Source: Escherichia coli (GTDB lineage: Bacteria > Pseudomonadota > Gammaproteobacteria > Enterobacterales > Enterobacteriaceae). From it: a stretch of 64,000 bases of DNA. Of the stretch, positions 9,719 through 63,944 are shown in pieces (position 1 is the first letter of the stretch; each line of letters starts with the position of its first letter). The notes under the pieces were generated by a model. The model was given only the letters and a program-made list of their open reading frames with translations. It had not been told where the DNA came from and made no database searches. The position numbers were made by a program, and so were the translations under genes. The DNA is taken from assembly GCF_048403405.1 (NCBI RefSeq), contig NZ_CP183129.1; one strand, given 5' to 3'.

Positions 9719-11866
9719 ATGAACGTTATTGCAATATTGAATCACATGGGGGTTTATTTTAAAGAAGAACCCATCCGTGAACTTCATCGCGCGCTTGAAC
9801 GTCTGAACTTCCAGATTGTTTACCCGAACGACCGTGACGACTTATTAAAACTGATCGAAAACAATGCGCGTCTGTGCGGCGTTATTTTTGACTGGGATAA
9901 ATATAATCTCGAGCTGTGCGAAGAAATTAGCAAAATGAACGAGAACCTGCCGTTGTACGCGTTCGCTAATACGTATTCCACTCTCGATGTAAGCCTGAAT
10001 GACCTGCGTTTACAGATTAGCTTCTTTGAATATGCGCTGGGTGCTGCTGAAGATATTGCTAACAAGATCAAGCAGACCACTGACGAATATATCAACACTA
10101 TTCTGCCTCCGCTGACCAAAGCATTGTTTAAATATGTTCGTGAAGGTAAATATACTTTCTGTACTCCTGGTCACATGGGCGGTACTGCATTCCAGAAAAG
10201 CCCGGTAGGTAGCCTGTTCTATGATTTCTTTGGTCCGAACACCATGAAATCTGATATTTCCATTTCAGTATCTGAACTGGGTTCTCTGCTGGATCACAGT
10301 GGTCCACACAAAGAAGCAGAACAGTATATCGCTCGCGTCTTTAACGCAGACCGCAGCTACATGGTGACCAACGGTACTTCCACTGCGAACAAAATTGTTG
10401 GTATGTACTCTGCTCCGGCAGGCAGCACCATTCTGATTGACCGTAACTGCCACAAATCGCTGACCCACCTGATGATGATGAGCGATGTTACGCCAATCTA
10501 TTTCCGCCCGACCCGTAACGCTTACGGTATTCTTGGTGGTATCCCACAGAGTGAATTCCAGCACGCTACCATTGCTAAGCGCGTGAAAGAAACACCAAAC
10601 GCAACCTGGCCGGTACATGCTGTAATTACCAACTCTACCTATGATGGTCTGCTGTACAACACCGACTTCATCAAGAAAACACTGGATGTGAAATCCATCC
10701 ACTTTGACTCCGCGTGGGTGCCTTACACCAACTTCTCACCGATTTACGAAGGTAAATGCGGTATGAGCGGTGGCCGTGTAGAAGGGAAAGTGATTTACGA
10801 AACCCAGTCTACTCACAAACTGCTGGCGGCGTTCTCTCAGGCTTCCATGATCCACGTTAAAGGTGACGTAAACGAAGAAACCTTTAACGAAGCCTACATG
10901 ATGCACACCACCACCTCTCCGCACTACGGTATCGTGGCGTCCACTGAAACCGCTGCGGCGATGATGAAAGGCAATGCAGGTAAGCGTCTGATCAACGGTT
11001 CCATTGAACGTGCGATCAAATTCCGTAAAGAGATCAAACGTCTGAGAACGGAATCTGATGGCTGGTTCTTTGATGTATGGCAGCCGGATCATATCGATAC
11101 CACTGAATGCTGGCCGCTGCGTTCTGACAGCACCTGGCACGGCTTCAAAAACATCGATAACGAGCACATGTATCTTGACCCGATCAAAGTCACCCTGCTG
11201 ACTCCGGGGATGGAAAAAGACGGCACCATGAGCGACTTTGGTATTCCGGCCAGCATCGTGGCGAAATACCTCGACGAACATGGCATCGTTGTTGAGAAAA
11301 CCGGTCCGTATAACCTGCTGTTCCTGTTCAGCATCGGTATCGATAAGACCAAAGCACTGAGCCTGCTGCGTGCTCTGACTGACTTCAAACGTGCGTTCGA
11401 CCTGAACCTGCGTGTGAAAAACATGCTGCCGTCTCTGTATCGTGAAGATCCTGAATTCTATGAAAACATGCGTATTCAGGAACTGGCTCAGAATATCCAT
11501 AAACTGATTGTTCACCACAATCTGCCGGATCTGATGTATCGCGCATTTGAAGTGCTGCCGACAATGGTAATGACTCCGTATGCTGCGTTCCAGAAAGAGC
11601 TGCACGGTATGACCGAAGAAGTTTACCTCGACGAAATGGTAGGTCGTATTAACGCCAATATGATCCTTCCGTATCCGCCGGGAGTTCCTCTGGTAATGCC
11701 GGGTGAAATGATCACCGAAGAAAGCCGTCCGGTTCTGGAGTTCCTGCAGATGCTGTGTGAAATCGGCGCTCACTATCCGGGCTTTGAAACCGATATTCAC
11801 GGTGCATACCGTCAGGCTGATGGCCGCTATACCGTTAAGGTATTGAAAGAAGAAAGCAAAAAATAA
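9719..11866 (+). CDS. cadA: inducible lysine decarboxylase CadA, 715 aa
   Basis: ORF track starts at 9680; ATG at 9719 gives MNVIAILNHMGVYFKEEP matching recalled CadA; PLP-lysine motif region STHKLL present; paralog of the adiA product. Confidence 0.95.
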   Translation: MNVIAILNHMGVYFKEEPIRELHRALERLNFQIVYPNDRDDLLKLIENNARLCGVIFDWDKYNLELCEEISKMNENLPLYAFANTYSTLDVSLNDLRLQISFFEYALGAAEDIANKIKQTTDEYINTILPPLTKALFKYVREGKYTFCTPGHMGGTAFQKSPVGSLFYDFFGPNTMKSDISISVSELGSLLDHSGPHKEAEQYIARVFNADRSYMVTNGTSTANKIVGMYSAPAGSTILIDRNCHKSLTHLMMMSDVTPIYFRPTRNAYGILGGIPQSEFQHATIAKRVKETPNATWPVHAVITNSTYDGLLYNTDFIKKTLDVKSIHFDSAWVPYTNFSPIYEGKCGMSGGRVEGKVIYETQSTHKLLAAFSQASMIHVKGDVNEETFNEAYMMHTTTSPHYGIVASTETAAAMMKGNAGKRLINGSIERAIKFRKEIKRLRTESDGWFFDVWQPDHIDTTECWPLRSDSTWHGFKNIDNEHMYLDPIKVTLLTPGMEKDGTMSDFGIPASIVAKYLDEHGIVVEKTGPYNLLFLFSIGIDKTKALSLLRALTDFKRAFDLNLRVKNMLPSLYREDPEFYENMRIQELAQNIHKLIVHHNLPDLMYRAFEVLPTMVMTPYAAFQKELHGMTEEVYLDEMVGRINANMILPYPPGVPLVMPGEMITEESRPVLEFLQMLCEIGAHYPGFETDIHGAYRQADGRYTVKVLKEESKK

Positions 11867-11877
11867 TTAGCTCGTAC

Positions 11878-11906
11878 AAGGGAAGTGGCTTGCCACTTCC
11901 CTTTTT
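11878..11906 (+). terminator. rho-independent terminator downstream of cadA
   Basis: Hairpin gggaagtgg-cttg-ccacttccc followed by ttttttg. Confidence 0.7.
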
Positions 11907-11924
11907 TGCTCATAAGGAGAACAC

Positions 11925-13382
11925 ATGAAAACACCCTCACAGCCGCGCGCGATATACTATATCGTGGCGATCCAAATCTGGGAGTACTTCAGTTTTTACG
12001 GCATGCGTGCCTTACTCATTCTCTATCTCACCCATCAGCTTGGTTTTGATGATAACCATGCCATCAGCCTGTTCAGCGCATATGCTTCTCTGGTTTACGT
12101 TACCCCTATTCTCGGCGGCTGGCTTGCCGACCGCCTGCTCGGCAACCGCACTGCAGTGATTGCCGGCGCGCTGTTAATGACCCTTGGCCATGTAGTGCTG
12201 GGCATTGATACAAATTCAACCTTTAGCCTGTATCTGGCGCTGGCAATCATTATTTGTGGCTACGGTTTATTCAAATCAAACATCAGCTGTTTGCTTGGCG
12301 AGCTCTACGACGAGAACGATCATCGACGTGATGGCGGTTTTTCGCTGCTGTATGCTGCAGGCAATATCGGTTCTATCGCCGCCCCCATCGCCTGCGGCCT
12401 GGCTGCTCAGTGGTATGGATGGCATGTTGGCTTTGCCCTTGCGGGTGGCGGCATGTTTATCGGTTTGTTGATTTTCTTAAGCGGTCATCGTCATTTCCAG
12501 TCCACGCGTAGTATGGATAAGAAAGCGCTCACTAGCGTCAAATTTGCCTTACCAGTATGGAGCTGGTTAGTGGTGATGCTCTGTTTAGCCCCAGTATTTT
12601 TTACCCTGCTGCTGGAGAACGACTGGTCCGGATATTTGCTGGCGATCGTTTGCCTCATTGCAGCACAAATCATTGCCCGCATGATGATCAAATTCCCCGA
12701 ACACCGCCGTGCTCTTTGGCAAATTGTATTGTTGATGTTTGTCGGGACGTTGTTCTGGGTACTGGCACAACAGGGCGGCAGTACCATCAGCTTGTTTATC
12801 GATCGCTTTGTGAATCGTCAGGCATTCAATATTGAAGTACCTACAGCACTATTCCAGTCGGTGAATGCCATTGCGGTGATGCTCGCTGGGGTTGTTCTGG
12901 CCTGGCTGGCGTCGCCAGAAAGCCGCGGCAATTCAGCATTGCGCGTCTGGCTGAAGTTTGCCTTTGGCTTACTGCTGATGGCTTGTGGCTTTATGTTGCT
13001 GGCATTTGATGCCCGACATGCAGCGGCTGGCGGTCAAGCGTCAATGGGCGTGATGGTATCCGGGCTGGCGCTAATGGGCTTTGCTGAACTCTTTATTGAC
13101 CCGGTGGCGATTGCGCAAATCACGCGTCTGAAAATGTCTGGCGTATTAACCGGTATTTATATGCTGGCAACAGGCGCGGTCGCCAACTGGCTGGCAGGCG
13201 TCGTGGCACAGCAGACGACAGAGTCGCAAATTAGCGGTATGGCAATTGCCGCTTACCAGCGATTCTTTTCTCAGATGGGAGAGTGGACGTTGGCTTGTGT
13301 CGCGATCATCGTGGTATTGGCCTTTGCTACCCGTTTTCTGTTTAGCACGCCGACGAATATGATACAGGAGAGCAACGATTAA
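11925..13382 (+). CDS. dtpC: proton-dependent di/tripeptide transporter DtpC (YjdL), 485 aa
   Basis: ORF with RBS aaggag; POT/PTR2-family MFS transporter; matches recalled DtpC. Confidence 0.93.
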
Positions 13383-35065: not shown

Positions 35066-36157
35066 ATGCGTTTTCTGCGCCGACCAATATCGCTGCGCCA
35101 ACGGCTGATATTGACCATTGGGGCCATTTTGTTGGTGTTTGAGCTGATCAGCGTCTTCTGGCTATGGCATGAAAGTACCGAGCAGATTCAGCTGTTTGAG
35201 CAGGCGCTACGCGACAATCGCAACAACGATCGCCACATCATGCGTGAGATCCGCGAGGCGGTCGCCAGCCTGATCGTCCCCGGCGTCTTTATGGTCAGCC
35301 TGACGCTATTTATCTGCTATCAGGCGGTACGCCGCATCACCCGCCCGCTGGCGGAGCTGCAAAAAGAGCTGGAAGCGCGCACCGCCGACAACTTAACGCC
35401 CATTGCCATTCACAGCGCCACCCTCGAAATCGAAGCGGTGGTTTCGGCGTTAAACGATCTGGTCAGTCGCCTGACCAACACGCTGGATAACGAAAGGTTG
35501 TTTACCGCTGACGTCGCGCACGAACTGCGAACGCCACTGGCGGGGGTGCGTTTGCATCTGGAACTGCTGGCGAAAACGCATCACATTGATGTAGCACCGT
35601 TAGTGGCACGGCTTGATCAGACGATGGAGAGCGTCTCCCAGCTGCTGCAACTGGCGCGTGCCGGACAGTCATTTTCTTCCGGTAATTATCAACATGTAAA
35701 ACTGCTGGAAGATGTCATTCTCCCCTCGTATGACGAACTCAGTACCATGCTCGACCAGCGACAGCAAACCCTGCTATTGCCAGAGAGCGCCGCCGACATC
35801 ACCGTTCAGGGTGATGCAACCCTGCTGCGGATGTTATTGCGAAACCTGGTAGAAAACGCCCATCGTTACAGCCCGCAAGGCAGCAACATTATGATTAAGC
35901 TGCAAGAAGATGGCGGAGCGGTCATGGCCGTTGAAGATGAAGGACCGGGTATTGATGAGAGTAAATGCGGGGAGTTGAGTAAAGCGTTTGTACGTATGGA
36001 CAGCCGTTATGGCGGGATTGGTCTGGGGTTAAGTATTGTCAGCCGCATTACACAGTTGCATCACGGGCAGTTTTTCCTGCAAAACCGGCAAGAGACTTCC
36101 GGCACGCGGGCCTGGGTACGGCTGAAGAAAGATCAGTACGTGGTAAACCAGATATAA
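35066..36157 (+). CDS. basS: sensor histidine kinase BasS (PmrB), 363 aa
   Basis: ORF track starts at TTG 35057; ATG at 35066; two TM segments, H-box (VAHELRTPL) and HATPase (EDEGPGI); matches recalled BasS. Confidence 0.9.
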   Translation: MRFLRRPISLRQRLILTIGAILLVFELISVFWLWHESTEQIQLFEQALRDNRNNDRHIMREIREAVASLIVPGVFMVSLTLFICYQAVRRITRPLAELQKELEARTADNLTPIAIHSATLEIEAVVSALNDLVSRLTNTLDNERLFTADVAHELRTPLAGVRLHLELLAKTHHIDVAPLVARLDQTMESVSQLLQLARAGQSFSSGNYQHVKLLEDVILPSYDELSTMLDQRQQTLLLPESAADITVQGDATLLRMLLRNLVENAHRYSPQGSNIMIKLQEDGGAVMAVEDEGPGIDESKCGELSKAFVRMDSRYGGIGLGLSIVSRITQLHHGQFFLQNRQETSGTRAWVRLKKDQYVVNQI

Positions 36158-36222
36158 AGAAAGCTGCTGACCACCAGCACGCTGAACACGGTAGTTAAAC
36201 TTTCATAAACACGGTTTTTCAT
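36133..36222 (-). CDS. pmrR: small membrane protein PmrR, 29 aa, convergently overlapping basS 3' end
   Basis: Hand translation of the minus strand: strong RBS ggaggagag then ATG giving MKNRVYESLTTVFSVLVVSSFLYIWFTTY*; matches recalled PmrR; overlaps the last 25 nt of basS. Confidence 0.75.
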   Translation of the reverse strand: MKNRVYESLTTVFSVLVVSSFLYIWFTTY

Positions 36223-36330
36223 TGCACTCTCCTCCGTTAACCTGGAGGAGAGTATGCGCGTCAGAGATTAAGTGAACCTTAAGACTTCAATTGGCCTGAT
36301 AAGACAGCGTCTCAGGCCATCCGTTTCAGC

Positions 36331-41937: not shown

Positions 41938-41955
41938 TTGTATTGTGATCGGTAA

Positions 41956-42031
41956 GCCGGATAAGGCGCTCGCGCCGCATCCGGCAACGATGCCGACTGC
42001 CTGATGCGACGCTGACCGCGTCTTATCAGGC
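41956..42031. repeat. BIME (two inverted REP elements) between yjdM and yjdN
   Basis: gccggataaggcgctcgcgccgcatccggc and gcctgatgcgacgctgaccgcgtcttatcaggc REP-family palindromes. Confidence 0.6.
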
Positions 42032-42096
42032 TTCCCTCTCATCTGTATAAATTTCGAACTACACTTAAGTGGCTTCTCTTAACTGAGGTCACCATC

Positions 42097-42595: not shown

Positions 42596-42638
42596 CCGTT
42601 AGTCACTTTTAGTTAACAAAATCGTCACAATAATCCGC
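42596..42638 (+). promoter_or_regulatory. candidate Pho box (PhoB binding) in the phnC promoter
   Basis: ccgttagtcacttttagttaacaaaatcgtcacaataa contains GTCAC-containing direct repeats at roughly 11-bp spacing, ending about 35 bp upstream of phnC; resembles the Pho-box consensus. Confidence 0.45.
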
Positions 42639-42672: not shown

Positions 42673-43461
42673 ATGCAAACGATTATCCGTGTCGAGAAGC
42701 TCGCCAAAACCTTCAATCAGCATCAGGCGCTGCACGCGGTTGATCTGAACATTCATCACGGTGAAATGGTGGCTCTGCTTGGGCCGTCGGGTTCCGGCAA
42801 ATCCACCCTTTTACGTCACTTAAGCGGTTTGATTACCGGCGATAAATCTGCCGGTAGCCATATCGAGCTGCTGGGCCGCACAGTCCAGCGCGAAGGCCGC
42901 CTGGCCCGCGATATCCGCAAAAGCCGCGCCAACACCGGCTACATCTTCCAACAATTCAACCTGGTGAATCGCCTGAGCGTACTGGAGAACGTGCTGATTG
43001 GCGCGCTCGGCAGCACGCCATTCTGGCGCACCTGTTTTAGCTACTTCACTCGCGAGCAGAAACAGCGCGCGTTACAGGCGCTAACCCGCGTTGGCATGGT
43101 GCACTTTGCCCATCAGCGCGTTTCCACCCTCTCCGGCGGACAGCAGCAGCGTGTGGCGATTGCCCGCGCGCTGATGCAGCAGGCGAAGGTGATTCTGGCG
43201 GACGAACCCATCGCCTCGCTGGACCCGGAATCAGCGCGCATCGTGATGGACACCCTGCGCGACATCAACCAGAACGACGGCATTACCGTGGTCGTCACGC
43301 TGCATCAGGTGGATTACGCCCTGCGCTACTGCGAACGCATCGTCGCCCTGCGCCAGGGGCACGTCTTCTACGACGGCAGCAGCCAACAGTTTGATAACGA
43401 ACGCTTTGATCATCTCTATCGCAGCATCAACCGCGTCGAAGAGAACGCGAAAGCTGCCTGA
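42673..43461 (+). CDS. phnC: phosphonate ABC transporter ATP-binding protein PhnC, 262 aa
   Basis: Walker [13 protein letters not shown] signature LSGGQQQRV, Walker B ILADEP; matches recalled PhnC. Confidence 0.95.
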
Positions 43462-43485: not shown

Positions 43486-44502
43486 ATGAACGCTAAGATA
43501 ATTGCCTCGCTGGCCTTCACCAGCATGTTCAGCCTCAGCACCCTGTTAAGCCCGGCGCACGCCGAAGAGCAGGAAAAGGCGCTGAATTTCGGCATTATTT
43601 CAACGGAATCACAGCAAAACCTGAAACCGCAATGGACGCCGTTCTTACGGGATATGGAGAAGAAGCTGGGCGTAAAGGTCAACGCCTTCTTTGCCCCGGA
43701 CTACGCGGGCATTATCCAGGGGATGCGCTTCAATAAAGTGGATATCGCCTGGTACGGCAACCTGTCGGCGATGGAAGCGGTGGATCGCGCCAACGGTCAG
43801 GTCTTCGCCCAGACGGTCGCGGCGGATGGATCGCCAGGTTACTGGAGCGTGTTGATCGTCAACAAAGACAGCCCGATCAACAACCTGAACGATCTGCTGG
43901 CGAAGCGGAAAGATCTCACCTTCGGTAATGGCGATCCTAACTCCACCTCTGGCTTCCTCGTCCCCGGTTACTACGTCTTCGCCAAAAACAATATCTCCGC
44001 CAGCGACTTCAAGCGCACCGTCAATGCCGGGCATGAAACCAACGCGCTGGCCGTCGCCAACAAGCAGGTGGATGTGGCGACCAACAACACCGAGAACCTC
44101 GACAAGCTGAAAACCTCCGCACCGGAGAAGCTCAAAGAGCTGAAAGTGATCTGGAAATCGCCGCTGATTCCAGGCGATCCGATCGTCTGGCGCAAAAATC
44201 TGTCCGAAACCACCAAAGACAAGATCTACGACTTCTTTATGAATTACGGCAAAACGCCGGAAGAGAAAGCGGTGCTGGAACGCCTGGGCTGGGCCCCGTT
44301 CCGCGCCTCCAGCGACCTGCAACTGGTACCGATTCGCCAGCTCGCGCTGTTTAAAGAGATGCAGGGCGTGAAAAGCAATAAAGGGCTGAATGAGCAGGAC
44401 AAGCTGGCGAAAACCACCGCGATTCAGGCGCAGCTGGATGACCTGGACCGCCTGAACAACGCGTTAAGCGCGATGAGTTCGGTAAGTAAAGCGGTGCAGT
44501 AA
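43486..44502 (+). CDS. phnD: phosphonate ABC transporter periplasmic binding protein PhnD, 338 aa
   Basis: Signal peptide MNAKIIASLAFTSMFSLSTLLSPAHA; matches recalled PhnD. Confidence 0.95.
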   Translation: MNAKIIASLAFTSMFSLSTLLSPAHAEEQEKALNFGIISTESQQNLKPQWTPFLRDMEKKLGVKVNAFFAPDYAGIIQGMRFNKVDIAWYGNLSAMEAVDRANGQVFAQTVAADGSPGYWSVLIVNKDSPINNLNDLLAKRKDLTFGNGDPNSTSGFLVPGYYVFAKNNISASDFKRTVNAGHETNALAVANKQVDVATNNTENLDKLKTSAPEKLKELKVIWKSPLIPGDPIVWRKNLSETTKDKIYDFFMNYGKTPEEKAVLERLGWAPFRASSDLQLVPIRQLALFKEMQGVKSNKGLNEQDKLAKTTAIQAQLDDLDRLNNALSAMSSVSKAVQ

Positions 44503-44516
44503 TGTGCTCGATCGAT

Positions 44517-44604
44517 CCCCTCTCCCTTGAGGGAGAGGGTTAGGGTGAGGGGGAAATGCGCACGCTGATGCCCTCACCCCGGCCCTCTCCCACAGGGAGA
44601 GGGA
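44517..44604. repeat. nested GC-rich palindromic intergenic repeat between phnD and phnE
   Basis: Two CCCTCTCCC-N4-GGGAGAGGG hairpins flanking complementary GGGTGAGGG / CCCTCACCC segments; resembles small E. coli intergenic repeat families. Confidence 0.55.
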
Positions 44605-44627
44605 GAAAACATTAAACGGAGCAATAT

Positions 44628-45407
44628 ATGCAAACCATCACCATCGCCCCACCCAAGCGCAGCTGGTTCTCGCTTCTGAGCTGGGCCATTGTACTCGCCG
44701 TGCTGGTCGTCTCGTGGCAGGGCGCGGAAATGGCCCCGCTCACGCTGATCAAAGACGGCGGCAACATGGCAACCTTCGCCGCCGACTTCTTCCCGCCCGA
44801 TTTCAGCCAGTGGCAGGATTACCTCACCGAAATGGCCGTCACGCTGCAAATCGCCGTCTGGGGCACCGCGCTGGCGGTGGTTCTCTCCATCCCCTTTGGC
44901 CTGATGAGCGCCGAAAACCTGGTGCCGTGGTGGGTTTACCAACCCGTTCGCCGCCTGATGGACGCCTGCCGCGCCATTAACGAGATGGTCTTCGCCATGC
45001 TGTTCGTGGTCGCCGTCGGTCTCGGTCCGTTCGCTGGCGTACTGGCGCTGTTTATCCACACCACCGGCGTGCTCTCCAAACTGCTTTCCGAAGCGGTAGA
45101 AGCAATTGAACCCGGCCCGGTGGAAGGTATTCGCGCCACCGGTGCCAACAAGCTGGAAGAGATTCTCTACGGCGTGCTGCCACAGGTGATGCCGCTGCTG
45201 ATCTCCTACTCCCTCTATCGCTTCGAATCCAACGTCCGCTCGGCGACCGTCGTCGGCATGGTCGGCGCGGGCGGGATCGGCGTCACCCTGTGGGAAGCGA
45301 TTCGCGGTTTCCAGTTCCAGCAAACCTGCGCCCTGATGGTGCTGATTATCGTCACGGTCAGCCTGCTGGATTTCCTCTCTCAACGGTTGCGTAAGCACTT
45401 TATCTGA
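44628..45407 (+). CDS. phnE: phosphonate ABC transporter permease PhnE, intact 259-codon ORF
   Basis: Uninterrupted [38 protein letters not shown]... with multiple TM segments and ABC-permease EAA-like loop. Confidence 0.9.
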
Positions 45408-45427
45408 TAAGCGAGGCATTGATATCT

Positions 45428-46153
45428 ATGCACTTGTCTACACATCCGACCAGCTACCCAACACGCTATCAGGAGATAGCCGCAAAACTTGAGCAGGAGC
45501 TTCGTCAACACTACCGCTGCGGCGACTATCTTCCCGCCGAGCAGCAACTGGCGGCGCGCTTTGAGGTGAACCGCCACACCCTGCGCCGCGCCATCGACCA
45601 ACTGGTGGAAAAAGGCTGGGTACAGCGCCGTCAGGGCGTCGGCGTGCTGGTGCTGATGCGCCCGTTCGATTACCCGCTCAACGCCCAGGCGCGTTTTAGC
45701 CAGAACCTGCTGGATCAGGGCAGCCATCCCACCAGCGAAAAACTGCTGTCTGTGCTGCGCCCGGCCTCCGGTCACGTCGCTGACGCGCTGGGGATAACCG
45801 AGGGCGAGAACGTTATCCACCTGCGCACCCTGCGTCGGGTCAACGGCGTCGCGCTCTGTTTAATCGACCACTACTTTGCGGACCTCACCCTCTGGCCGAC
45901 GCTGCAACGCTTCGACAGCGGCTCGCTGCACGATTTTCTGCGCGAGCAAACGGGGATTGCGCTGCGCCGCAGCCAGACGCGGATCAGCGCCCGCCGCGCC
46001 CAGGCCAAAGAGTGCCAGCGTCTTGAAATCCCGAATATGTCGCCGCTGCTGTGCGTGCGCACCCTTAACCACCGTGACGGTGAAAGCAGCCCGGCGGAGT
46101 ACTCCGTCAGCCTGACGCGCGCCGACATGATTGAATTCACTATGGAGCACTGA
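45428..46153 (+). CDS. phnF: GntR-family repressor PhnF, 241 aa
   Basis: ATG at 45428 (MHLSTHPTSYPTRYQEIAAKLEQ) with N-terminal GntR HTH; ORF track begins at TTG 45419. Confidence 0.92.
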   Translation: MHLSTHPTSYPTRYQEIAAKLEQELRQHYRCGDYLPAEQQLAARFEVNRHTLRRAIDQLVEKGWVQRRQGVGVLVLMRPFDYPLNAQARFSQNLLDQGSHPTSEKLLSVLRPASGHVADALGITEGENVIHLRTLRRVNGVALCLIDHYFADLTLWPTLQRFDSGSLHDFLREQTGIALRRSQTRISARRAQAKECQRLEIPNMSPLLCVRTLNHRDGESSPAEYSVSLTRADMIEFTMEH

Positions 46154-46606
46154 ATGCACGCAGATACCGCGACCCGCCAGCACTGGATGTCCGTGCTGGC
46201 ACACAGCCAACCGGCTGAACTGGCAGCCCGCCTGAAGGCGCTGAACATCACTGCCGACTATGAAGTAATCCGCGCCGCTGAAACCGGCCTGGTGCAGATT
46301 CAGGCGCGGATGGGTGGCACCGGCGAACGCTTTTTTGCTGGCGACGCCACGCTCACCCGCGCCGCCATACGCCTGACTGACGGCACGCTCGGCTACAGCT
46401 GGGTGCTGGGGCGCGACAAACAGCACGCCGAACGCTGCGCGCTGATCGACGCGCTGATGCAGCAAACCCGCCATTTTCAAAACTTATCAGAAACTCTTAT
46501 TGCCCCGCTGAACGCTGACCGTATGGCACGCATTGCCGCACGCCAGGCCGAAGTAAACGCCAGCCGGGTCGACTTCTTTACGATGGTTCGCGGAGACAAC
46601 GCATGA
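46154..46606 (+). CDS. phnG: C-P lyase core complex subunit PhnG, 150 aa
   Basis: ORF and operon position; matches recalled PhnG. Confidence 0.93.
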
Positions 46607-47187
46607 CCCTGGAAACCGCTTTTATGCTTCCCGTGCAGGATTCCCAGCACAGTTTTCGTCGCCTGTTAAAGGCCATGAGCGAGCCGGGCGTGATTGTCGC
46701 CCTGCATCAGCTCAAACGCGGCTGGCAGCCGCTGAATATCGCCACCACCAGCGTGCTGCTGACGCTGGCCGATAACGACACGCCGGTGTGGCTTTCTGCG
46801 CCATTAAGTAACGATATCGTCAGCCAGAGCCTGCGTTTTCATACCAACGCGCCGCTGGTCAATCAGCCGGAACTGGCGACCTTCGCGGTAACGGATGAGG
46901 CGATTTCCAGCGAACAGCTCAACGCTCTTTCCAGCGGCACCGCTGTTGCGCCGGAAGCGGGCGCGACGCTGATTTTACAGGTCGTCAGCCTGAGCGGCGG
47001 GCGCATGCTGCGCCTTACTGGCGCGGGTATTGCCGAAGAACGAATGATCGCTCCGCAGCTGCCGGAGTGCATTCTGCACGAACTCACCGAGCGCCCGCAC
47101 CCGTTCCCGCTCGGCATCGACCTGATCCTGACCTGCGGCGAGCGGCTGCTGGCTATCCCGCGAACCACTCATGTGGAGGTGTGCTGA
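46603..47187 (+). CDS. phnH: C-P lyase core complex subunit PhnH, 194 aa
   Basis: ATGA overlap with phnG; matches recalled PhnH. Confidence 0.93.
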
Positions 47188-48251
47188 TGTACGTTGCCGT
47201 GAAAGGGGGCGAGAAGGCGATCGACGCCGCCCACGCCCTGCAAGAGAGCCGACGCCGGGGCAATACCGATTTGCCTGAACTGAGCGTCGCCCAGATTGAA
47301 CAGCAGCTTAATCTTGCAGTAGATCGCGTGATGACCGAAGGCGGCATTGCCGACCGCGAACTGGCGGCGCTGGCGCTGAAACAGGCCAGCGGCGATAACG
47401 TCGAAGCGATTTTCCTGCTACGCGCCTACCGCACCACGCTGGCGAAGCTCGCGGTAAGCGAGCCGCTCGACACCACGGAGATGCGTCTCGAACGGCGTAT
47501 TTCAGCGGTTTATAAAGACATTCCCGGCGGCCAACTGCTTGGCCCAACCTACGACTACACCCATCGCCTGCTCGATTTCACCCTGCTGGCAAACGGCGAA
47601 GCGCCGACGCTGACCACCGCCGACAGCGAACAACAGCCGTCGCCGCACGTTTTCAGCCTGCTGGCGCGTCAGGGGCTGGCGAAGTTTGAAGAAGATAGCG
47701 GCGCACAGCCGGACGACATCACCCGCACGCCGCCGGTTTACCCCTGCTCACGCTCCTCCCGCCTGCAACAATTAATGCGCGGCGACGAAGGCTATTTGCT
47801 GGCGCTGGCCTACTCCACCCAGCGTGGTTACGGACGCAATCATCCGTTCGCAGGCGAAATCCGCAGCGGCTATATCCACGTGTCGATTGTGCCGGAAGAG
47901 CTGGGATTTGCGGTGAACGTCGGCGAACTGCTGATGACCGAATGTGAAATGGTCAACGGTTTTATCGACCCGCCGGATGAGCCGCCGCACTTCACGCGCG
48001 GCTACGGGCTGGTGTTCGGCATGAGCGAGCGCAAAGCGATGGCGATGGCGCTGGTTGACCGCGCTCTACAAGCCCCGGAGTACGGCGAGCACGCGACAGG
48101 CCCGGCGCAGGATGAAGAGTTCGTGCTGGCGCATGCCGACAACGTCGAAGCCGCAGGCTTTGTCTCGCACCTTAAACTCCCGCACTACGTCGATTTCCAG
48201 GCCGAACTGGAGCTACTCAAACGTCTGCAACAGGAGCAGAACCATGGCTAA
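47187..48251 (+). CDS. phnI: C-P lyase core complex subunit PhnI, 354 aa
   Basis: ATG at 47187 overlapping the phnH stop ([19 protein letters not shown]); ORF track starts at an upstream in-frame codon. Confidence 0.92.
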   Translation: MYVAVKGGEKAIDAAHALQESRRRGNTDLPELSVAQIEQQLNLAVDRVMTEGGIADRELAALALKQASGDNVEAIFLLRAYRTTLAKLAVSEPLDTTEMRLERRISAVYKDIPGGQLLGPTYDYTHRLLDFTLLANGEAPTLTTADSEQQPSPHVFSLLARQGLAKFEEDSGAQPDDITRTPPVYPCSRSSRLQQLMRGDEGYLLALAYSTQRGYGRNHPFAGEIRSGYIHVSIVPEELGFAVNVGELLMTECEMVNGFIDPPDEPPHFTRGYGLVFGMSERKAMAMALVDRALQAPEYGEHATGPAQDEEFVLAHADNVEAAGFVSHLKLPHYVDFQAELELLKRLQQEQNHG

Positions 48252-49089
48252 TCTGAGCGGCTACAACTTTGCCTACCTCGACGAGCAGACCAAACGCATG
48301 ATCCGCCGCGCCATCTTAAAAGCGGTGGCGATCCCCGGTTATCAGGTGCCGTTTGGCGGGCGCGAGATGCCGATGCCGTACGGCTGGGGAACTGGTGGTA
48401 TCCAGCTTACCGCCAGCGTGATTGGCGAAAGCGACGTGTTGAAGGTGATTGACCAGGGTGCGGATGACACCACCAACGCCGTGTCGATTCGCAACTTCTT
48501 TAAGCGCGTGACCGGGGTAAACACCACTGAACGTACGGACGATGCGACGCTTATCCAGACGCGTCACCGCATCCCCGAAACGCCGCTGACTGAAGATCAG
48601 ATCATTATCTTCCAGGTGCCAATCCCGGAACCGCTGCGCTTTATCGAGCCGCGCGAAACGGAGACCCGCACTATGCACGCGCTGGAGGAGTACGGCGTGA
48701 TGCAGGTGAAACTGTATGAAGATATCGCCCGCTTCGGTCATATCGCCACCACTTATGCCTATCCGGTGAAGGTGAACGGGCGCTACGTGATGGACCCGTC
48801 GCCGATCCCGAAATTCGATAACCCGAAAATGGACATGATGCCCGCCCTGCAGCTGTTCGGCGCAGGGCGCGAGAAGCGCATCTATGCGGTGCCGCCGTTT
48901 ACCCGCGTGGAAAGCCTCGATTTCGACGATCACCCGTTCACCGTTCAGCAGTGGAATGAGCCATGCGCCATCTGCGGATCGACCCACAGCTATCTTGATG
49001 AAGTGGTGCTGGATGACGCCGGAAACCGCATGTTTGTCTGCTCCGATACCGATTATTGCCGCCAACAGAGCGAGGCAAAAAACCAATGA
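48244..49089 (+). CDS. phnJ: C-P lyase catalytic subunit PhnJ (radical SAM-related, 4-Cys cluster), 281 aa
   Basis: ATG at 48244 (MANLSGYNFAYLDEQTKRMIRRAILKA); C-terminal CxxC...C...C cysteines (CAICGS...CSDTDYC). Confidence 0.93.
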   Translation: MANLSGYNFAYLDEQTKRMIRRAILKAVAIPGYQVPFGGREMPMPYGWGTGGIQLTASVIGESDVLKVIDQGADDTTNAVSIRNFFKRVTGVNTTERTDDATLIQTRHRIPETPLTEDQIIIFQVPIPEPLRFIEPRETETRTMHALEEYGVMQVKLYEDIARFGHIATTYAYPVKVNGRYVMDPSPIPKFDNPKMDMMPALQLFGAGREKRIYAVPPFTRVESLDFDDHPFTVQQWNEPCAICGSTHSYLDEVVLDDAGNRMFVCSDTDYCRQQSEAKNQ

Positions 49090-49844
49090 ATCAACCGTTA
49101 CTTTCGGTCAATAACCTGACCCACCTTTACGCGCCGGGCAAAGGCTTTAGCGATGTCTCTTTTGATTTATGGCCGGGGGAAGTGCTGGGCATCGTCGGGG
49201 AATCCGGCTCCGGGAAGACCACGCTGCTGAAATCAATCTCCGCGCGCCTGACGCCGCAGCAGGGGGAGATTCGCTATGAAAACCGCTCCCTCTATGGCAT
49301 GAGCGAAGCCGACCGCCGCCGTTTACTGCGCACCGAATGGGGCGTGGTACATCAGCATCCGCTCGACGGCCTGCGCCGCCAGGTGTCGGCAGGCGGCAAT
49401 ATCGGCGAGCGGCTGATGGCGACCGGGGCGCGTCATTACGGCGATATTCGCGCCACCGCGCAGAAGTGGCTGGAAGAGGTGGAGATTCCCGCTAACCGGA
49501 TCGACGACCTGCCAACCACCTTTTCCGGCGGCATGCAGCAGCGTTTGCAGATTGCCCGCAACCTGGTGACGCATCCGAAGCTGGTGTTTATGGACGAACC
49601 AACCGGCGGGCTGGATGTGTCGGTGCAGGCGCGCCTGCTCGACCTGCTGCGCGGCCTGGTGGTGGAGCTGAACCTGGCGGTGGTGATTGTCACCCACGAT
49701 TTAGGCGTCGCCCGCCTGCTGGCGGACCGTTTGCTGGTGATGAAGCAGGGGCAAGTAGTGGAGAGTGGGTTAACCGACCGCGTGCTCGACGACCCTCACC
49801 ATCCATATACCCAGCTGCTGGTGTCATCGGTTTTGCAGAATTGA
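49086..49844 (+). CDS. phnK: C-P lyase accessory ABC-type ATPase PhnK, 252 aa
   Basis: ATG at 49086 overlapping the phnJ stop; Walker [10 protein letters not shown], signature FSGGMQQRL. Confidence 0.93.
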
Positions 49845-49954: not shown

Positions 49955-50635
49955 ATGATTAACGTACAAAACGTCAGTAAAACCTTCATCCTGCACCAGC
50001 AAAACGGCGTGCGCCTGCCCGTCTTACAACGTGCCTCGCTCACCGTCAACGCAGGCGAATGCGTGGTGCTTCACGGCCACTCCGGCAGCGGCAAATCAAC
50101 TCTGCTGCGCTCGCTGTACGCCAACTATCTGCCCGATGAAGGGCAAATCCAGATCAAACATGGTGACGAGTGGGTAGACCTGGTCACTGCGCCAGCGCGC
50201 AAAGTGGTGGAAATCCGCAAAACCACTGTCGGCTGGGTGAGCCAGTTTCTGCGCGTCATCCCGCGTATTTCGGCACTGGAAGTGGTGATGCAGCCTCTGC
50301 TCGATACCGGCGTACCGCGTGAAGCCTGCGCCGCTAAAGCCGCCCGATTACTGACGCGCCTGAACGTGCCTGAGCGCCTGTGGCACCTTGCGCCATCAAC
50401 CTTCTCCGGCGGTGAACAACAGCGCGTCAACATCGCCCGCGGCTTTATCGTCGACTACCCTATTCTGCTGCTCGACGAACCCACCGCCTCGCTGGACGCC
50501 AAAAACAGCGCCGCGGTGGTGGAACTAATTCGCGAAGCCAAAGCCCGTGGCGCGGCCATCGTCGGCATTTTCCATGACGAAGCCGTACGCAATGACGTCG
50601 CCGACCGCCTGCACCCAATGGGAGCCTCTTCATGA
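49955..50635 (+). CDS. phnL: C-P lyase accessory ABC-type ATPase PhnL, 226 aa
   Basis: ATG at 49955 ([21 protein letters not shown]); Walker [10 protein letters not shown]. Confidence 0.93.
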
Positions 50636-51768
50636 TTATCAATAACGTTAAGCTGGTGCTGGAAAACGAAGTGGTGCACGGTTCGCTGGAGATGCAGGAC
50701 GGTGAAATCCGCGCCTTTGCCGAAAGCCAGAGCCGCCTGCCGGACGCGATGGACGGCGAAGGTGGCTGGCTGCTGCCGGGGCTGATTGAGCTGCATACCG
50801 ATAATCTGGATAAATTCTTCACCCCGCGCCCGAAAGTTGACTGGCCCGCCCATTCAGCGATGAGCAGCCACGACGCGCTGATGGTGGCAAGCGGCATCAC
50901 CACCGTACTGGACGCCGTGGCGATTGGTGATGTGCGCGACGGCGGCGATCGGCTGGAGAATCTGGAGAAGATGATCAACGCCATCGAAGAGACGCAGAAA
51001 CGCGGCGTCAACCGCGCCGAGCACCGCCTGCACCTGCGCTGCGAACTGCCGCACCACACCACGTTGCCGCTGTTTGAAAAACTGGTGCAGCGCGAACCGG
51101 TGACGCTGGTATCGCTGATGGACCACTCGCCAGGCCAGCGCCAGTTCGCCAATCGCGAGAAGTATCGCGAATATTATCAGGGCAAATATTCCCTCACCGA
51201 TGCGCAGATGCAGCAGTACGAAGAAGAGCAATTGGCGCTCGCCGCACGCTGGTCGCAGCCAAATCGCGAAACCATCGCCGCAATGTGCCGCGCGCGACAC
51301 ATTGCGCTCGCCAGCCACGATGACGCCACGCACGCCCACGTTGCCGAATCCCACCAGCTTGGCAGCGTGATCGCCGAATTTCCCACCACGTTCGAAGCGG
51401 CAGAAGCCTCGCGCAAGCATGGCATGAACGTGCTGATGGGCGCGCCGAATATCGTGCGCGGCGGTTCGCACTCCGGCAACGTGGCGGCCAGTGAACTGGC
51501 GCAGCTTGGCCTGCTGGATATCCTCTCTTCCGACTACTACCCCGCCAGCCTGCTCGATGCGGCATTTCGCGTCGCCGATGACGAGAGCAACCGCTTTACG
51601 CTGCCGCAGGCGGTGAAGTTGGTGACCAAAAATCCGGCGCAGGCGCTTAATCTCCAGGATCGCGGGGTGATTGGCGAGGGCAAACGCGCCGACCTGGTGC
51701 TGGCGCATCGCAAGGGCAATCACATTCATATCGACCACGTCTGGCGTCAGGGTAAAAGGGTGTTCTGA
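50632..51768 (+). CDS. phnM: amidohydrolase-family PhnM (ribosyl-triphosphate diphosphohydrolase), 378 aa
   Basis: ATGA overlap with phnL; metal-dependent hydrolase motif region HTDNLD. Confidence 0.93.
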
Positions 51769-52325
51769 TGACGGGAAAACTGATTTGGTTAATGGGGGCC
51801 TCTGGCTCCGGAAAAGACAGTCTGTTGACGGAACTCCGCCAGCGGGAACAAACTCAGCTACTGGTAGCGCATCGCTACATCACGCGCGCCGCCAGCGCCG
51901 GAAGTGAAAACCATATCGCCCTGAGCGAGCAGGAGTTTTTTACCCGCGCGGGGCAAAATCTGCTGGCCTTAAGCTGGCACGCTAACGGCCTGTATTATGG
52001 CGTCGGCGTCGAGATTGACCTCTGGCTGCACGCTGGATTTGACGTGATGGTCAACGGCTCACGCGCCCATCTGCCGCAGGCGCGGGCGCGCTATCAATCG
52101 GCGCTGCTGCCCGTTTGTTTACAGGTTTCGCCGGAGATCCTGCGCCAGCGCCTCGAAAACCGTGGTCGTGAAAATGCCAGTGAAATTAACGCCCGACTGG
52201 CACGCGCTGCCCGCTATACTCCTCAGGATTGTCTTACGCTCAATAATGACGGCAGCCTGCGCCAGTCGGTCGACAAGCTGCTGACGCTGATTCATCAGAA
52301 GGAGAAACACCATGCCTGCTTGTGA
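51768..52325 (+). CDS. phnN: ribose 1,5-bisphosphate phosphokinase PhnN, 185 aa
   Basis: P-loop GASGSGKDS; overlaps phnM stop. Confidence 0.93.
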
Positions 52326-52746
52326 GCTTCGCCCGGCTACGCAGTACGACATCGACGCAGTTTACGCGCTGATTTGTGAGCTAAAACAGGCGGAGTTTGA
52401 CCACCACGCGTTTCGCGTGGGGTTTAACGCCAATCTGCGCGACCCGAACATGCGCTACCATTTGGCGCTGCTGGATGGCGAGGTTGTCGGCATGATCGGT
52501 CTGCATTTGCAGTTTCATCTGCATCATGTCAACTGGATCGGCGAAATTCAGGAACTGGTGGTGATGCCGCAGGCGCGCGGTCTGAACGTCGGTAGTAAAT
52601 TACTGGCATGGGCAGAAGAAGAAGCCCGCCAGGCCGGGGCAGAAATGACCGAGCTTTCCACCAACGTCAAGCGCCACGACGCGCACCGTTTCTATCTGCG
52701 CGAAGGCTATGAGCAGAGCCACTTCCGCTTCACCAAGGCGCTGTAA
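52312..52746 (+). CDS. phnO: aminoalkylphosphonate N-acetyltransferase PhnO (GNAT), 144 aa
   Basis: ORF and operon position; overlaps phnN 3' end. Confidence 0.92.
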
Positions 52747-52747
52747 C

Positions 52748-53506
52748 ATGAGCCTGACCCTCACACTTACTGGCACTGGCGGCGCACAGGGCGTTCCCGC
52801 ATGGGGCTGTGAGTGCGCGGCCTGCGCCAGAGCGCGGCGCTCATCGCAGTATCGCCGCCAGCCATGCAGCGGCGTCGTGAAGTTTAACGACGCGATCACC
52901 CTGATCGACGCCGGGCTGCACGATCTCGCCGATCGCTGGTCGCCCGGATCGTTCCAGCAGTTTTTGCTGACGCACTACCATATGGATCACGTGCAGGGGC
53001 TGTTTCCGCTGCGCTGGGGCGTGGGCGATTCGATCCCGATCTACGGCCCGCCGGATGAACAGGGCTGCGACGATCTGTTTAAACATCCGGGCCTGCTTGA
53101 TTTCAGCCACACGATGGAACCGTTTGTGGTGTTTGATTTACAGGGGTTACAGGTCACGCCCCTGCCGCTCAACCACTCAAAACTGACCTTCGGTTATCTG
53201 CTGGAAACGGCACACAGCCTGGTGGCGTGGCTGTCTGACACCGCTGGCTTGCCGGAAAAAACGCTGAAATTTTTACGCAATAATCAGCCGCAGGTAATGG
53301 TGATTGATTGCAGCCATCCGCCGCGTGCGGATGCGCCGCGTAATCACTGTGATTTAAACACCGTGCTGGCGCTGAATGAGGTTATCCGCTCGCCACGGGT
53401 GATTCTGACGCATATCAGCCACCAGTTTGATGCGTGGCTGATGGAAAACGCACTGCCGTCGGGGTTTGAGGCGGGGTTTGATGGGATGGAGATTGGGGTG
53501 GCGTGA
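52748..53506 (+). CDS. phnP: phosphodiesterase PhnP (metallo-beta-lactamase fold), 252 aa
   Basis: ATG at 52748 ([23 protein letters not shown]); HxHxDH-type motif THYHMDH; ORF track starts upstream in frame. Confidence 0.92.
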
Positions 53507-53995: not shown

Positions 53996-54313
53996 TCAAT
54001 TTCTCCGCTGCTCTATTGCCGTAATCGCCTCCACGTGTTGTTGATGACGACCGCCTTCGTACTGCGCGCCCAGCCACGCATCCACAATCATTTTTGCCAG
54101 TTCGAGGCCAACCACTCGTGAACCAAAAGCCAGTGCAACTTCACTGGCATAATGCGGATAATCAGTGCGCTCTGACGACCTGGTGTCTTTATCAATCACC
54201 TCACTCATTGACCATGAATAAAAGGCTGGCACAGCAACGCAGAATCCTGCGGTGCCAGCGACATGACCGCCCATTGCTCCGGTACGTTTTTTAATAAAAA
54301 ACACCGGTTGCAT
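53996..54313 (-). pseudogene. rpiB: rearranged remnant of ribose-5-phosphate isomerase B (rpiB), 105-codon ORF
   Basis: C-terminal 42 aa (FGSRVVGLELAKMIVDAWLGAQYEGGRHQQ.VEAITAIEQRRN) and an internal block (VIDK.T.SSERTDYPHYAS.VALA) match recalled RpiB, but about 50 central residues are missing and the first 34 residues are unrelated. Confidence 0.5.
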
Positions 54314-61796: not shown

Positions 61797-63944
61797 ATGA
61801 AAAAAGTCGTCACGGTTTGCCCCTATTGCGCATCAGGTTGCAAAATCAACCTGGTCGTCGATAACGGCAAAATCGTCCGGGCGGAGGCAGCGCAGGGGAA
61901 AACCAACCAGGGTACCCTGTGTCTGAAGGGTTATTATGGCTGGGACTTCATTAACGATACCCAGATCCTGACCCCGCGCCTGAAAACCCCCATGATCCGT
62001 CGCCAGCGTGGCGGCAAACTCGAACCTGTTTCCTGGGATGAGGCACTGAATTACGTTGCCGAGCGCCTGAGCGCCATCAAAGAGAAGTACGGTCCGGATG
62101 CCATCCAGACGACCGGCTCCTCGCGTGGTACGGGTAACGAAACCAACTATGTAATGCAAAAATTTGCGCGCGCCGTTATTGGTACCAATAACGTTGACTG
62201 CTGCGCTCGTGTCTGACACGGCCCATCGGTTGCAGGTCTGCACCAATCGGTCGGTAATGGCGCAATGAGCAATGCTATTAACGAAATTGATAATACCGAT
62301 TTAGTGTTCGTTTTCGGGTACAACCCGGCGGATTCCCACCCAATCGTGGCGAACCACGTAATTAACGCTAAACGTAACGGGGCGAAAATTATAGTCTGCG
62401 ATCCACGCAAAATTGAAACCGCGCGCATTGCGGACATGCACATTGCACTGAAAAACGGCTCGAACATCGCGCTGTTGAATGCGATGGGCCATGTCATTAT
62501 TGAAGAAAATCTGTACGACAAAGCATTCGTCGCTTCCCGTACAGAAGGCTTTGAAGAGTATCGTAAAATCGTTGAAGGCTACACGCCGGAGTCGGTTGAA
62601 GATATCACCGGCGTCAGCGCCAGTGAGATTCGTCAGGCGGCACGGATGTATGCCCAGGCGAAAAGCGCCGCCATCCTGTGGGGCATGGGTGTAACCCAGT
62701 TCTACCAGGGCGTGGAAACCGTGCGTTCTCTGACCAGCCTCGCGATGCTGACCGGTAACCTCGGTAAGCCGCATGCGGGTGTAAACCCGGTTCGTGGTCA
62801 GAACAACGTGCAGGGTGCCTGCGATATGGGCGCGCTGCCGGATACGTATCCGGGATACCAGTACGTGAAAGATCCAGCTAACCGTGAGAAATTCGCCAAA
62901 GCCTGGGGCGTGGAAAGCCTGCCAGCGCATACCGGCTATCGCATCAGCGAGCTGCCGCACCGCGTAGCGCATGGCGAAGTGCGTGCCGCGTACATTATGG
63001 GCGAAGATCCGCTGCAAACTGACGCGGAGCTGTCGGCAGTACGTAAAGCCTTTGAAGATCTGGAACTGGTTATCGTTCAGGACATCTTTATGACCAAAAC
63101 CGCGTCGGCGGCGGATGTTATTTTACCGTCAACGTCGTGGGGCGAGCATGAAGGCGTGTTTACTGCGGCTGACCGTGGCTTCCAGCGTTTCTTCAAAGCA
63201 GTTGAGCCGAAATGGGATCTGAAAACGGACTGGCAAATCATCAGTGAAATTGCCACTCGTATGGGTTATCCGATGCACTACAACAACACCCAGGAGATCT
63301 GGGATGAGTTGCGTCATCTGTGCCCGGATTTCTACGGTGCGACTTACGAGAAAATGGGCGAACTGGGCTTCATTCAGTGGCCTTGCCGCGATACTTCAGA
63401 TGCCGATCAGGGGACTTCTTATCTGTTTAAAGAGAAGTTTGATACCCCGAACGGTCTGGCGCAGTTCTTCACCTGCGACTGGGTAGCGCCAATCGACAAA
63501 CTCACCGACGAGTATCCGATGGTACTGTCAACGGTGCGTGAAGTTGGTCACTACTCTTGCCGTTCGATGACCGGTAACTGTGCGGCACTGGCGGCGCTGG
63601 CTGATGAACCTGGCTACGCACAAATCAATACCGAAGACGCCAAACGTCTGGGTATTGAAGATGAGGCATTGGTTTGGGTGCACTCGCGTAAAGGCAAAAT
63701 TATCACCCGTGCGCAGGTCAGCGATCGTCCGAACAAAGGGGCGATTTATATGACCTACCAGTGGTGGATTGGTGCCTGTAACGAGCTGGTTACCGAAAAC
63801 TTAAGCCCGATTACGAAAACGCCGGAATACAAATACTGCGCCGTGCGCGTCGAGCCGATCGCCGATCAGCGCGCCGCCGAGCAGTACGTGATTGACGAGT
63901 ACAACAAGTTGAAAACTCGCCTGCGCGAAGCGGCACTGGCGTAA
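61797..63944 (+). CDS. fdhF: formate dehydrogenase H, selenocysteine-containing (in-frame UGA = Sec140), 715 aa
   Basis: Two ORF-track ORFs (61797-62216 and 62265-63944) are in the same frame across TGA at 62214-62216; N-terminal 4Fe-4S cysteine motif CPYCASGCKINL; matches recalled FdhF. Confidence 0.93.
62214..62260 (+). other. selenocysteine UGA codon plus downstream SECIS stem-loop
   Basis: TGA followed by cacggcccatcggttgcaggtctgcaccaatcggtcggtaatggcg, which can form the SelB-binding hairpin. Confidence 0.8.

Follow-up and report, generated by a model that had tools for sequence, protein, structure and literature searches.

The closest described counterparts of the locus analysed here are the phnE alleles of Escherichia coli K-12 and E. 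coli B. In K-12, phnE has 8 bp inserted or duplicated at positions 407-414 (5'-GCTGGCGT), and deletion of these 8 bp restores the function of PhnCDE (PMC6469041, PMC3463581). According to the passages of PMC6469041, PMC3463581 and PMC4759930 that cite Makino 1991 and Iqbal 2004, phosphonate transport is regained when slippage between the direct repeats removes one unit, and such slippage occurs at high frequency (PMC4759930). The switching of K-12 phnE is reported to be reversible (Iqbal 2004, cited in PMC6469041 and PMC3463581). E. coli B and the K-12 revertants are proficient in the use of phosphonates (PMC3463581, PMC6469041), and PhnCDE imports orthophosphate in addition to phosphonates (PMC6469041).

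The DNA analysed, hereafter the window, is a stretch of 64 kb of E. coli chromosome. We consider it highly probable that it carries the common in-frame ('ON') form of phnE within a complete, PhoB-activated phnCDEFGHIJKLMNOP operon, in which PhnCDE would serve as an ABC importer of phosphonate and phosphate. The phnE reading frame runs on the + strand (44628-45407) from an ATG at 44628 to a TGA at 45405-45407, comprising 259 codons with no internal stop, and a GGAG Shine-Dalgarno sequence lies 8 nt 5' of the ATG. The product, annotated in RefSeq as WP_001193496.1, matched the NCBIfam PhnE equivalog profile TIGR01097 with 311.3 bits (cut-off 216.7; E = 4.5e-93), residues 16-258 of 259 covering profile positions 8-251 of 252. 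The binding-protein-dependent transport inner-membrane domain PF00528 was found at residues 88-258 with 91.8 bits against a cut-off of 26.4. Directly 5' on the same strand are phnC and phnD, encoding the ATPase and the binding protein. The profile match from end to end, together with the open frame, bears out the description of phnE in an earlier note on this DNA as an uninterrupted 259-codon permease gene. PhnE of the window shares its fold family, BPD_transp_1 (PF00528), with MetI, a type I ABC importer permease of known structure (PDB 3dhw and 6cvl), to which residues 125-254 align at E = 6e-06, indicating a distant relationship; no solved PhnE structure turned up in the sequence-based search.

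K-12 MG1655 (NC_000913.3), where phnE is annotated as the pseudogene b4583, was used as the reference and both loci were aligned. The cryptic K-12 allele, phn(EcoK0), lies at the same locus with the same neighbours and is 97% identical in nucleotide sequence to the window outside the repeat. Alignment revealed that the sole indel within phnE is one 8-bp unit. The K-12 tract consists of three units, GCTGGCGT GCTGGCGT GCTGGCGC, starting at ORF position 406, whereas the window has two units, GCTGGCGT ACTGGCGC, at ORF positions 406-421 (45033-45048, + strand). Translated from the homologous ATG, K-12 phnE loses the frame beyond codon 140 and meets a stop at codon 190, whereas the frame of the window, with its two units, is read through to codon 259; removal of one unit from K-12 phnE in silico restored a protein of 259 aa. 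The earlier note had described K-12 phnE as cryptic through an extra copy of a short direct repeat and had asked for this alignment, which placed the extra unit exactly as expected; no frameshift or premature stop emerged in phnE of the window. Since there are two units where K-12 has three, the frame is not shifted and no reversion is needed, and the strain is predicted from its genotype to be phosphonate-competent as it stands. The second unit also carries a G to A substitution at 45041, which is synonymous (Val138, GTG to GTA) and interrupts the direct repeat, so that the two units agree at 6 positions instead of 7. The ATG taken as the start of phnE in the window is the one used in other RefSeq genomes. 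As a separate observation on the reference, the annotation of b4583 (11444-12282 in the K-12 stretch compared) begins 51 nt 5' of the homologous ATG, at a start that sits in a REP element; by these coordinates, phnE is made 17 codons too long.

Comparison with the functional alleles revealed a close agreement. In both phn(EcoB) and the allele of the K-12 Phn+ revertant, phn(EcoK+), the tract at ORF position 406 consists of two 8-bp units, the product has 259 aa and the operon order is that of the window. The nucleotide differences to the window number 18-22 and are synonymous or near-synonymous; among the distinguishing features, the first base of the second repeat unit is A in the window and G in phn(EcoB) and phn(EcoK+). 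At the protein level, PhnE of the window differs from that of E. coli B (BL21) at one residue, V21I, and the same single difference was found against K-12 PhnE translated after removal of the 8 bp. The identical protein, WP_001193496.1, is also annotated in strain DG342-2, where 12 differences to the window were counted over the 780 positions of the phnE DNA. Given one residue of difference to alleles known to function, PhnE of the window would be expected to transport phosphonate and phosphate.

The distribution of the two forms was determined in a collection of 5,426 complete E. coli genomes, 5,394 of which contain phnE. For a 104-nt query spanning the three units of K-12, exact matches were obtained in 1,001 records and matches of 95-99% identity in another 8, and about 3,935 others aligned with an 8-nt gap, giving the 96-nt footprint of the two-unit allele. 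The three-unit allele thus accounts for about 1,009 and the two-unit allele for about 3,935 of 4,944 scored records; these counts cover 4,944 records and not 5,394, as a short-query megablast misses some 480-500 genomes whose alleles lack an exact word of 28 nt. The reciprocal query from the window placed 994 records in the three-unit band, and in an evenly spaced sample of full-length phnE matches, 12 of 59 had the 788-789-nt footprint of three units. The in-frame two-unit allele is therefore present in about 80% of complete genomes and the OFF allele in about 19-20%, and an intact phnE is the norm of the species. The vast majority of strains have likewise been described as carrying a functional phnE (PMC6469041). 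This reverses the contrast implied by the earlier note; it is K-12 that is the exception. The three-unit OFF allele was seen in K-12 derivatives and in isolates from chicken, cattle, humans and waste water.

A rival reading is that phnE is a phase-variable contingency gene caught in the ON state, which would turn OFF through the gain of a unit at an appreciable rate, so that competence would describe a state of the population and not a fixed genotype. We regard this as unlikely, even with the reversible switching of K-12 phnE that PMC6469041 and PMC3463581 report from Iqbal 2004, the frequent slippage between direct repeats (PMC4759930) and the three units found in about 19% of complete genomes all speaking in its favour. 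A phase-variable locus of the slip-strand kind is marked by a perfect tandem tract within coding sequence, with a unit number that varies among close relatives; here the unit number does vary across the species, and the tract, GCTGGCGT ACTGGCGC, is imperfect. The exact 36-mer across the interrupted tract occurs in 408 of the 5,426 genomes, and none of these 408, all with the GTA variant, shows an expanded form with a gained unit, compared with about 1,000 genomes that have three units where GTG leaves the tract uninterrupted, both being raw counts taken regardless of phylogeny. The three-unit genomes could also stem from one or a few events, many of them possibly sharing one K-12-like ancestor instead of reflecting repeated switching. 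One might propose that the G to A change at 45041 lowers the gain of a unit by slipped-strand pairing and so locks phnE in the ON state, out of reach of phase variation; we offer this tentatively and hold it to be rather unlikely.

The integrity of the operon was examined gene by gene. All 14 genes from phnC to phnP are present in order on one strand, colinear with K-12 and with no internal stop, and each has an ATG start and a stop where expected. The 13 Phn proteins other than PhnE aligned with the intact K-12 proteins from end to end without gaps, at identities from 95.7% (PhnN) to 100% (PhnF). The importer genes phnC (42673-43461; ATPase, 262 aa, 98.5% identical to K-12 PhnC) and phnD (43486-44502; periplasmic phosphonate-binding protein, 338 aa, 99.4%) precede phnE, which is followed by phnF (45428-46153), encoding a GntR-type regulator of 241 aa. 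The C-P lyase core is encoded by phnG (46154-46606), phnH (46603-47187), phnI (47187-48251) and phnJ (48244-49089), at 95.9-99.3% identity to K-12 and with junctions that overlap or abut. Then come the genes of the ATP-binding subunits, phnK (49086-49844) and phnL (49955-50635), assigned by alignment with the K-12 proteins, and the full-length phnM (50632-51768), phnN (51768-52325), phnO (52312-52746) and phnP (52748-53506), at 95.7-99.3%. The 14-gene C-P lyase operon is thus complete, as the earlier note had stated. Its further statement that the junctions are tight or overlapping is correct for 11 of 13, the spacings from phnC to phnP being 24, 125, 20, 0, -4, -1, -8, -4, 110, -4, -1, -14 and +1 bp; the exceptions are phnD-phnE (125 bp) and phnK-phnL (110 bp), which are comparable to the 105 and 110 bp at the same places in K-12. 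Terminator-like matches were not enriched in the operon (20 versus 13.6 ± 4.3 in shuffled sequences), one of them falling on the repeat tract, and were disregarded; when all of the window was scanned with Rfam, no RNA family was placed within the phn operon.

The same scan located three RNA families elsewhere in the window. The enterobacterial sRNA STnc630 (183 bits; 36126-36291, - strand) overlaps the small-protein gene pmrR, which RefSeq places at 36133-36222 between pmrB and proP. The nucleoid-associated noncoding RNA 4, naRNA4 (87.5 bits; 41955-42032, + strand), lies between yjdM and yjdN. SECIS_2 (87 bits; 62209-62263, + strand) lies within fdhF and indicates the UGA that is read in frame as selenocysteine in formate dehydrogenase H; for this reason fdhF appears split in a plain ORF scan.

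Upstream of phnC, the 132 bp preceding the gene are 95.5% identical to K-12 with no indel. By homology to K-12, the promoter region is placed at 42596-42634 on the + strand and contains putative phased PhoB half-sites (CCGTTAGTCAC TTTTAGTTAAC AAAATCGTCAC). Within it, the 18-mer GTTAACAAAATCGTCACA (42612-42629, + strand) is homologous to the PhoB ChIP-seq motif at phnC of K-12 MG1655, ATTAACCAAATCGTCACA (PMC10294691 Table 1), and matches it at 16 of 18 positions. In K-12, phnC RNA amounted to 32,470 in the wild type versus 13 in the delta-phoB strain (PMC10294691). The TCAC/TAAC/TCAC cores and their 11-bp phasing are unchanged between the window and K-12. Three changes from K-12 to the window were found in the Pho-box region (42596-42629), namely CTGTTAG to CCGTTAG in the first upstream heptamer, TTTTAAT to TTTTAGT and AACC to AACA; they sit in or beside the PhoB half-sites, two of them within the 18-mer. 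We read AATAAT at 42629-42634 as a putative -10-like element of phnC. Nothing in the window matched the textbook Pho box, CTGTCATAWAWCTGTCAY, with up to 3 mismatches allowed, the phnC site being a weak match to the consensus. The phnC Pho box of K-12 has the lowest affinity and fires latest among the Pho promoters tested (PMC4447250), and the PhoB site of phnC is poorly conserved between species (PMC10294691). A scan of the phnC promoter for the sigma-70 consensus likewise gave nothing, as expected of a PhoB-dependent promoter that has no -35 element. The promoter allele of the window is shared by about 390 complete genomes at 99% identity or more over the 132 bp. A candidate Pho box 5' of phnC, as the earlier note had it, is thus supported, its basis being homology to the K-12 ChIP-seq site and not resemblance to the consensus.

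The phnD-phnE spacer is filled by a palindromic dispersed intergenic repeat of about 106 bp (44503-44610), recognised by its inverted arms and its predicted RNA fold of -72 kcal/mol (z = -8.0). It may be a boxC-like element. Members of the family are dispersed, occurring at 1-5 places (median 2) in each genome with any match, and K-12 has a copy of 94.5% identity in the hrpB-mrcB interval, where no repeat is annotated in the K-12 record. In place of this palindrome, K-12, BL21 and SA186 have a different element in the spacer, presumably a REP pair, and this K-12-type element is also that of phn(EcoB) and phn(EcoK+), in contrast to the window; strain DG342-2 has a collapsed version of 60 nt. 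At least three repeat-element states therefore exist at this position across E. coli. The palindrome is unlike an intrinsic terminator because no T-run follows it. REP elements act in other ABC-importer operons, and by analogy the palindrome may make the phnCD message on its 5' side more stable and determine how much binding protein is made relative to permease. A hairpin-forming repeat in the spacer could also lower the expression of phnE relative to phnD.

These features bear on a further alternative, that the frame is open and the allele or operon is nevertheless impaired, through weaker activation by PhoB, through expression reduced by the palindrome or through V21I. The base changes at and around the PhoB motif, the structure of -72 kcal/mol between phnD and phnE and the already low affinity of the phnC site (PMC4447250) would fit such an impairment. 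The TCAC/TAAC/TCAC cores with their phasing are kept, however, and some 390-410 genomes with these promoter and spacer alleles retain an intact operon, which suggests that the operon is maintained rather than decaying. A structured repeat also occupies the spacer in K-12 and E. coli B, where the system is functional once phnE is in frame (PMC3463581). V21I, for its part, is a conservative substitution in the N-terminal hydrophobic segment, and the identical protein recurs in the annotation of at least one further genome, that of DG342-2, on a distinguishable phnE sequence. An impaired operon is therefore very improbable in our judgement, and we keep to a complete operon with phnE in frame.

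It is also extremely unlikely that the tract really has three units, one of which was lost in sequencing or assembly. Short tandem repeats are open to miscalling in general, with nothing specific to the window pointing that way, whereas a tract of 16 bp is trivial for any sequencing platform, the exact 36-mer recurs in 408 independent complete genomes and two units are found in about 80% of all genomes. Strain 4621 (NZ_CP103479.1, 4671448-4735447), which differs from the entire 64-kb window by one mismatch, argues in the same direction. Over 1,101 bp around phnE, strains 4621, MS 69-1 and TUM1226 are 100% identical to the window. In RefSeq, the gene order of the strain 4621 counterpart is aspA ... 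cadCBA ... dcuSR ... melAB ... adiA/Y/C, eptA-basRS, proP, yjdM, yjdN, phnC-phnP, yjdP, the rpiB remnant, yjcS, mdtNOP and fdhF, with no pseudogene flag, in keeping with a complete phn operon.

The rpiB remnant downstream of the phn genes encodes 105 aa on the - strand (53996-54313, the downstream part extending to about 54400) and aligns with residues 29-149 of K-12 RpiB at 53% identity, with gaps in 53 of 121 columns. It is directly followed by yjcS, and alsR and alsB, which lie 3' of rpiB in K-12, are absent; the remaining genes of the D-allose operon, alsACEK, are presumably missing from the window as well.

Length of the reading frame alone proves nothing at phnE, because the antisense strand has an even longer ORF of 281 codons (44574-45419, - strand), and it is the homology of the + strand product to PhnE that settles the matter. 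The idea that this antisense ORF, by virtue of its greater length, is the real gene in place of phnE has practically no chance of being right, as its 281-aa product matched no Pfam family even at E <= 1 and was rejected as a gene on that ground, RefSeq does not annotate it, and the + strand product is a full-length PhnE. DNA of about 60% GC yields long spurious ORFs, and the phn operon has about 60% GC compared with 42-45% in its flanks; the antisense ORF is most likely a by-product of this composition.

From what is generally established about the Pho regulon and the C-P lyase steps, we propose the following course of events for the in-frame operon of the window. Under phosphate starvation, phosphorylated PhoB would bind the phased half-sites 5' of phnC and recruit RNA polymerase. 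PhnD would capture phosphonate in the periplasm, and PhnE together with PhnC would import it. The products of phnG to phnP would then convert it to usable phosphorus via the ribosyl-phosphonate intermediates of the C-P lyase pathway, with PhnGHIJKLM, PhnN, PhnO and PhnP expected to accomplish the cleavage of the C-P bond and the salvage. For the window allele, the open reading frames, the unit count, the homology to alleles that function and the conserved promoter are direct results, and expression, transport and growth on phosphonates are predictions.

The finding of an intact phnE is correct and already well known. Published work covers the crypticity of K-12 phnE, the 8-bp repeat behind it, the reversion of this allele and the presence of a functional phnE in most E. 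coli (Makino 1991 and Iqbal 2004, as cited in PMC6469041 and PMC3463581). What is mildly new lies at the population level, namely that the three-unit OFF allele is found in about one fifth of complete genomes, among them human and farm-animal isolates besides K-12 laboratory strains, and that a group of 408 genomes shares the interrupted repeat. Beyond correct annotation the result has little import: unlike K-12, the strain is to be treated as genotypically Phn+. This genotype bears on metabolic models, on the phenotypes of glyphosate and phosphonate utilisation and on the uptake of phosphate by PhnCDE.
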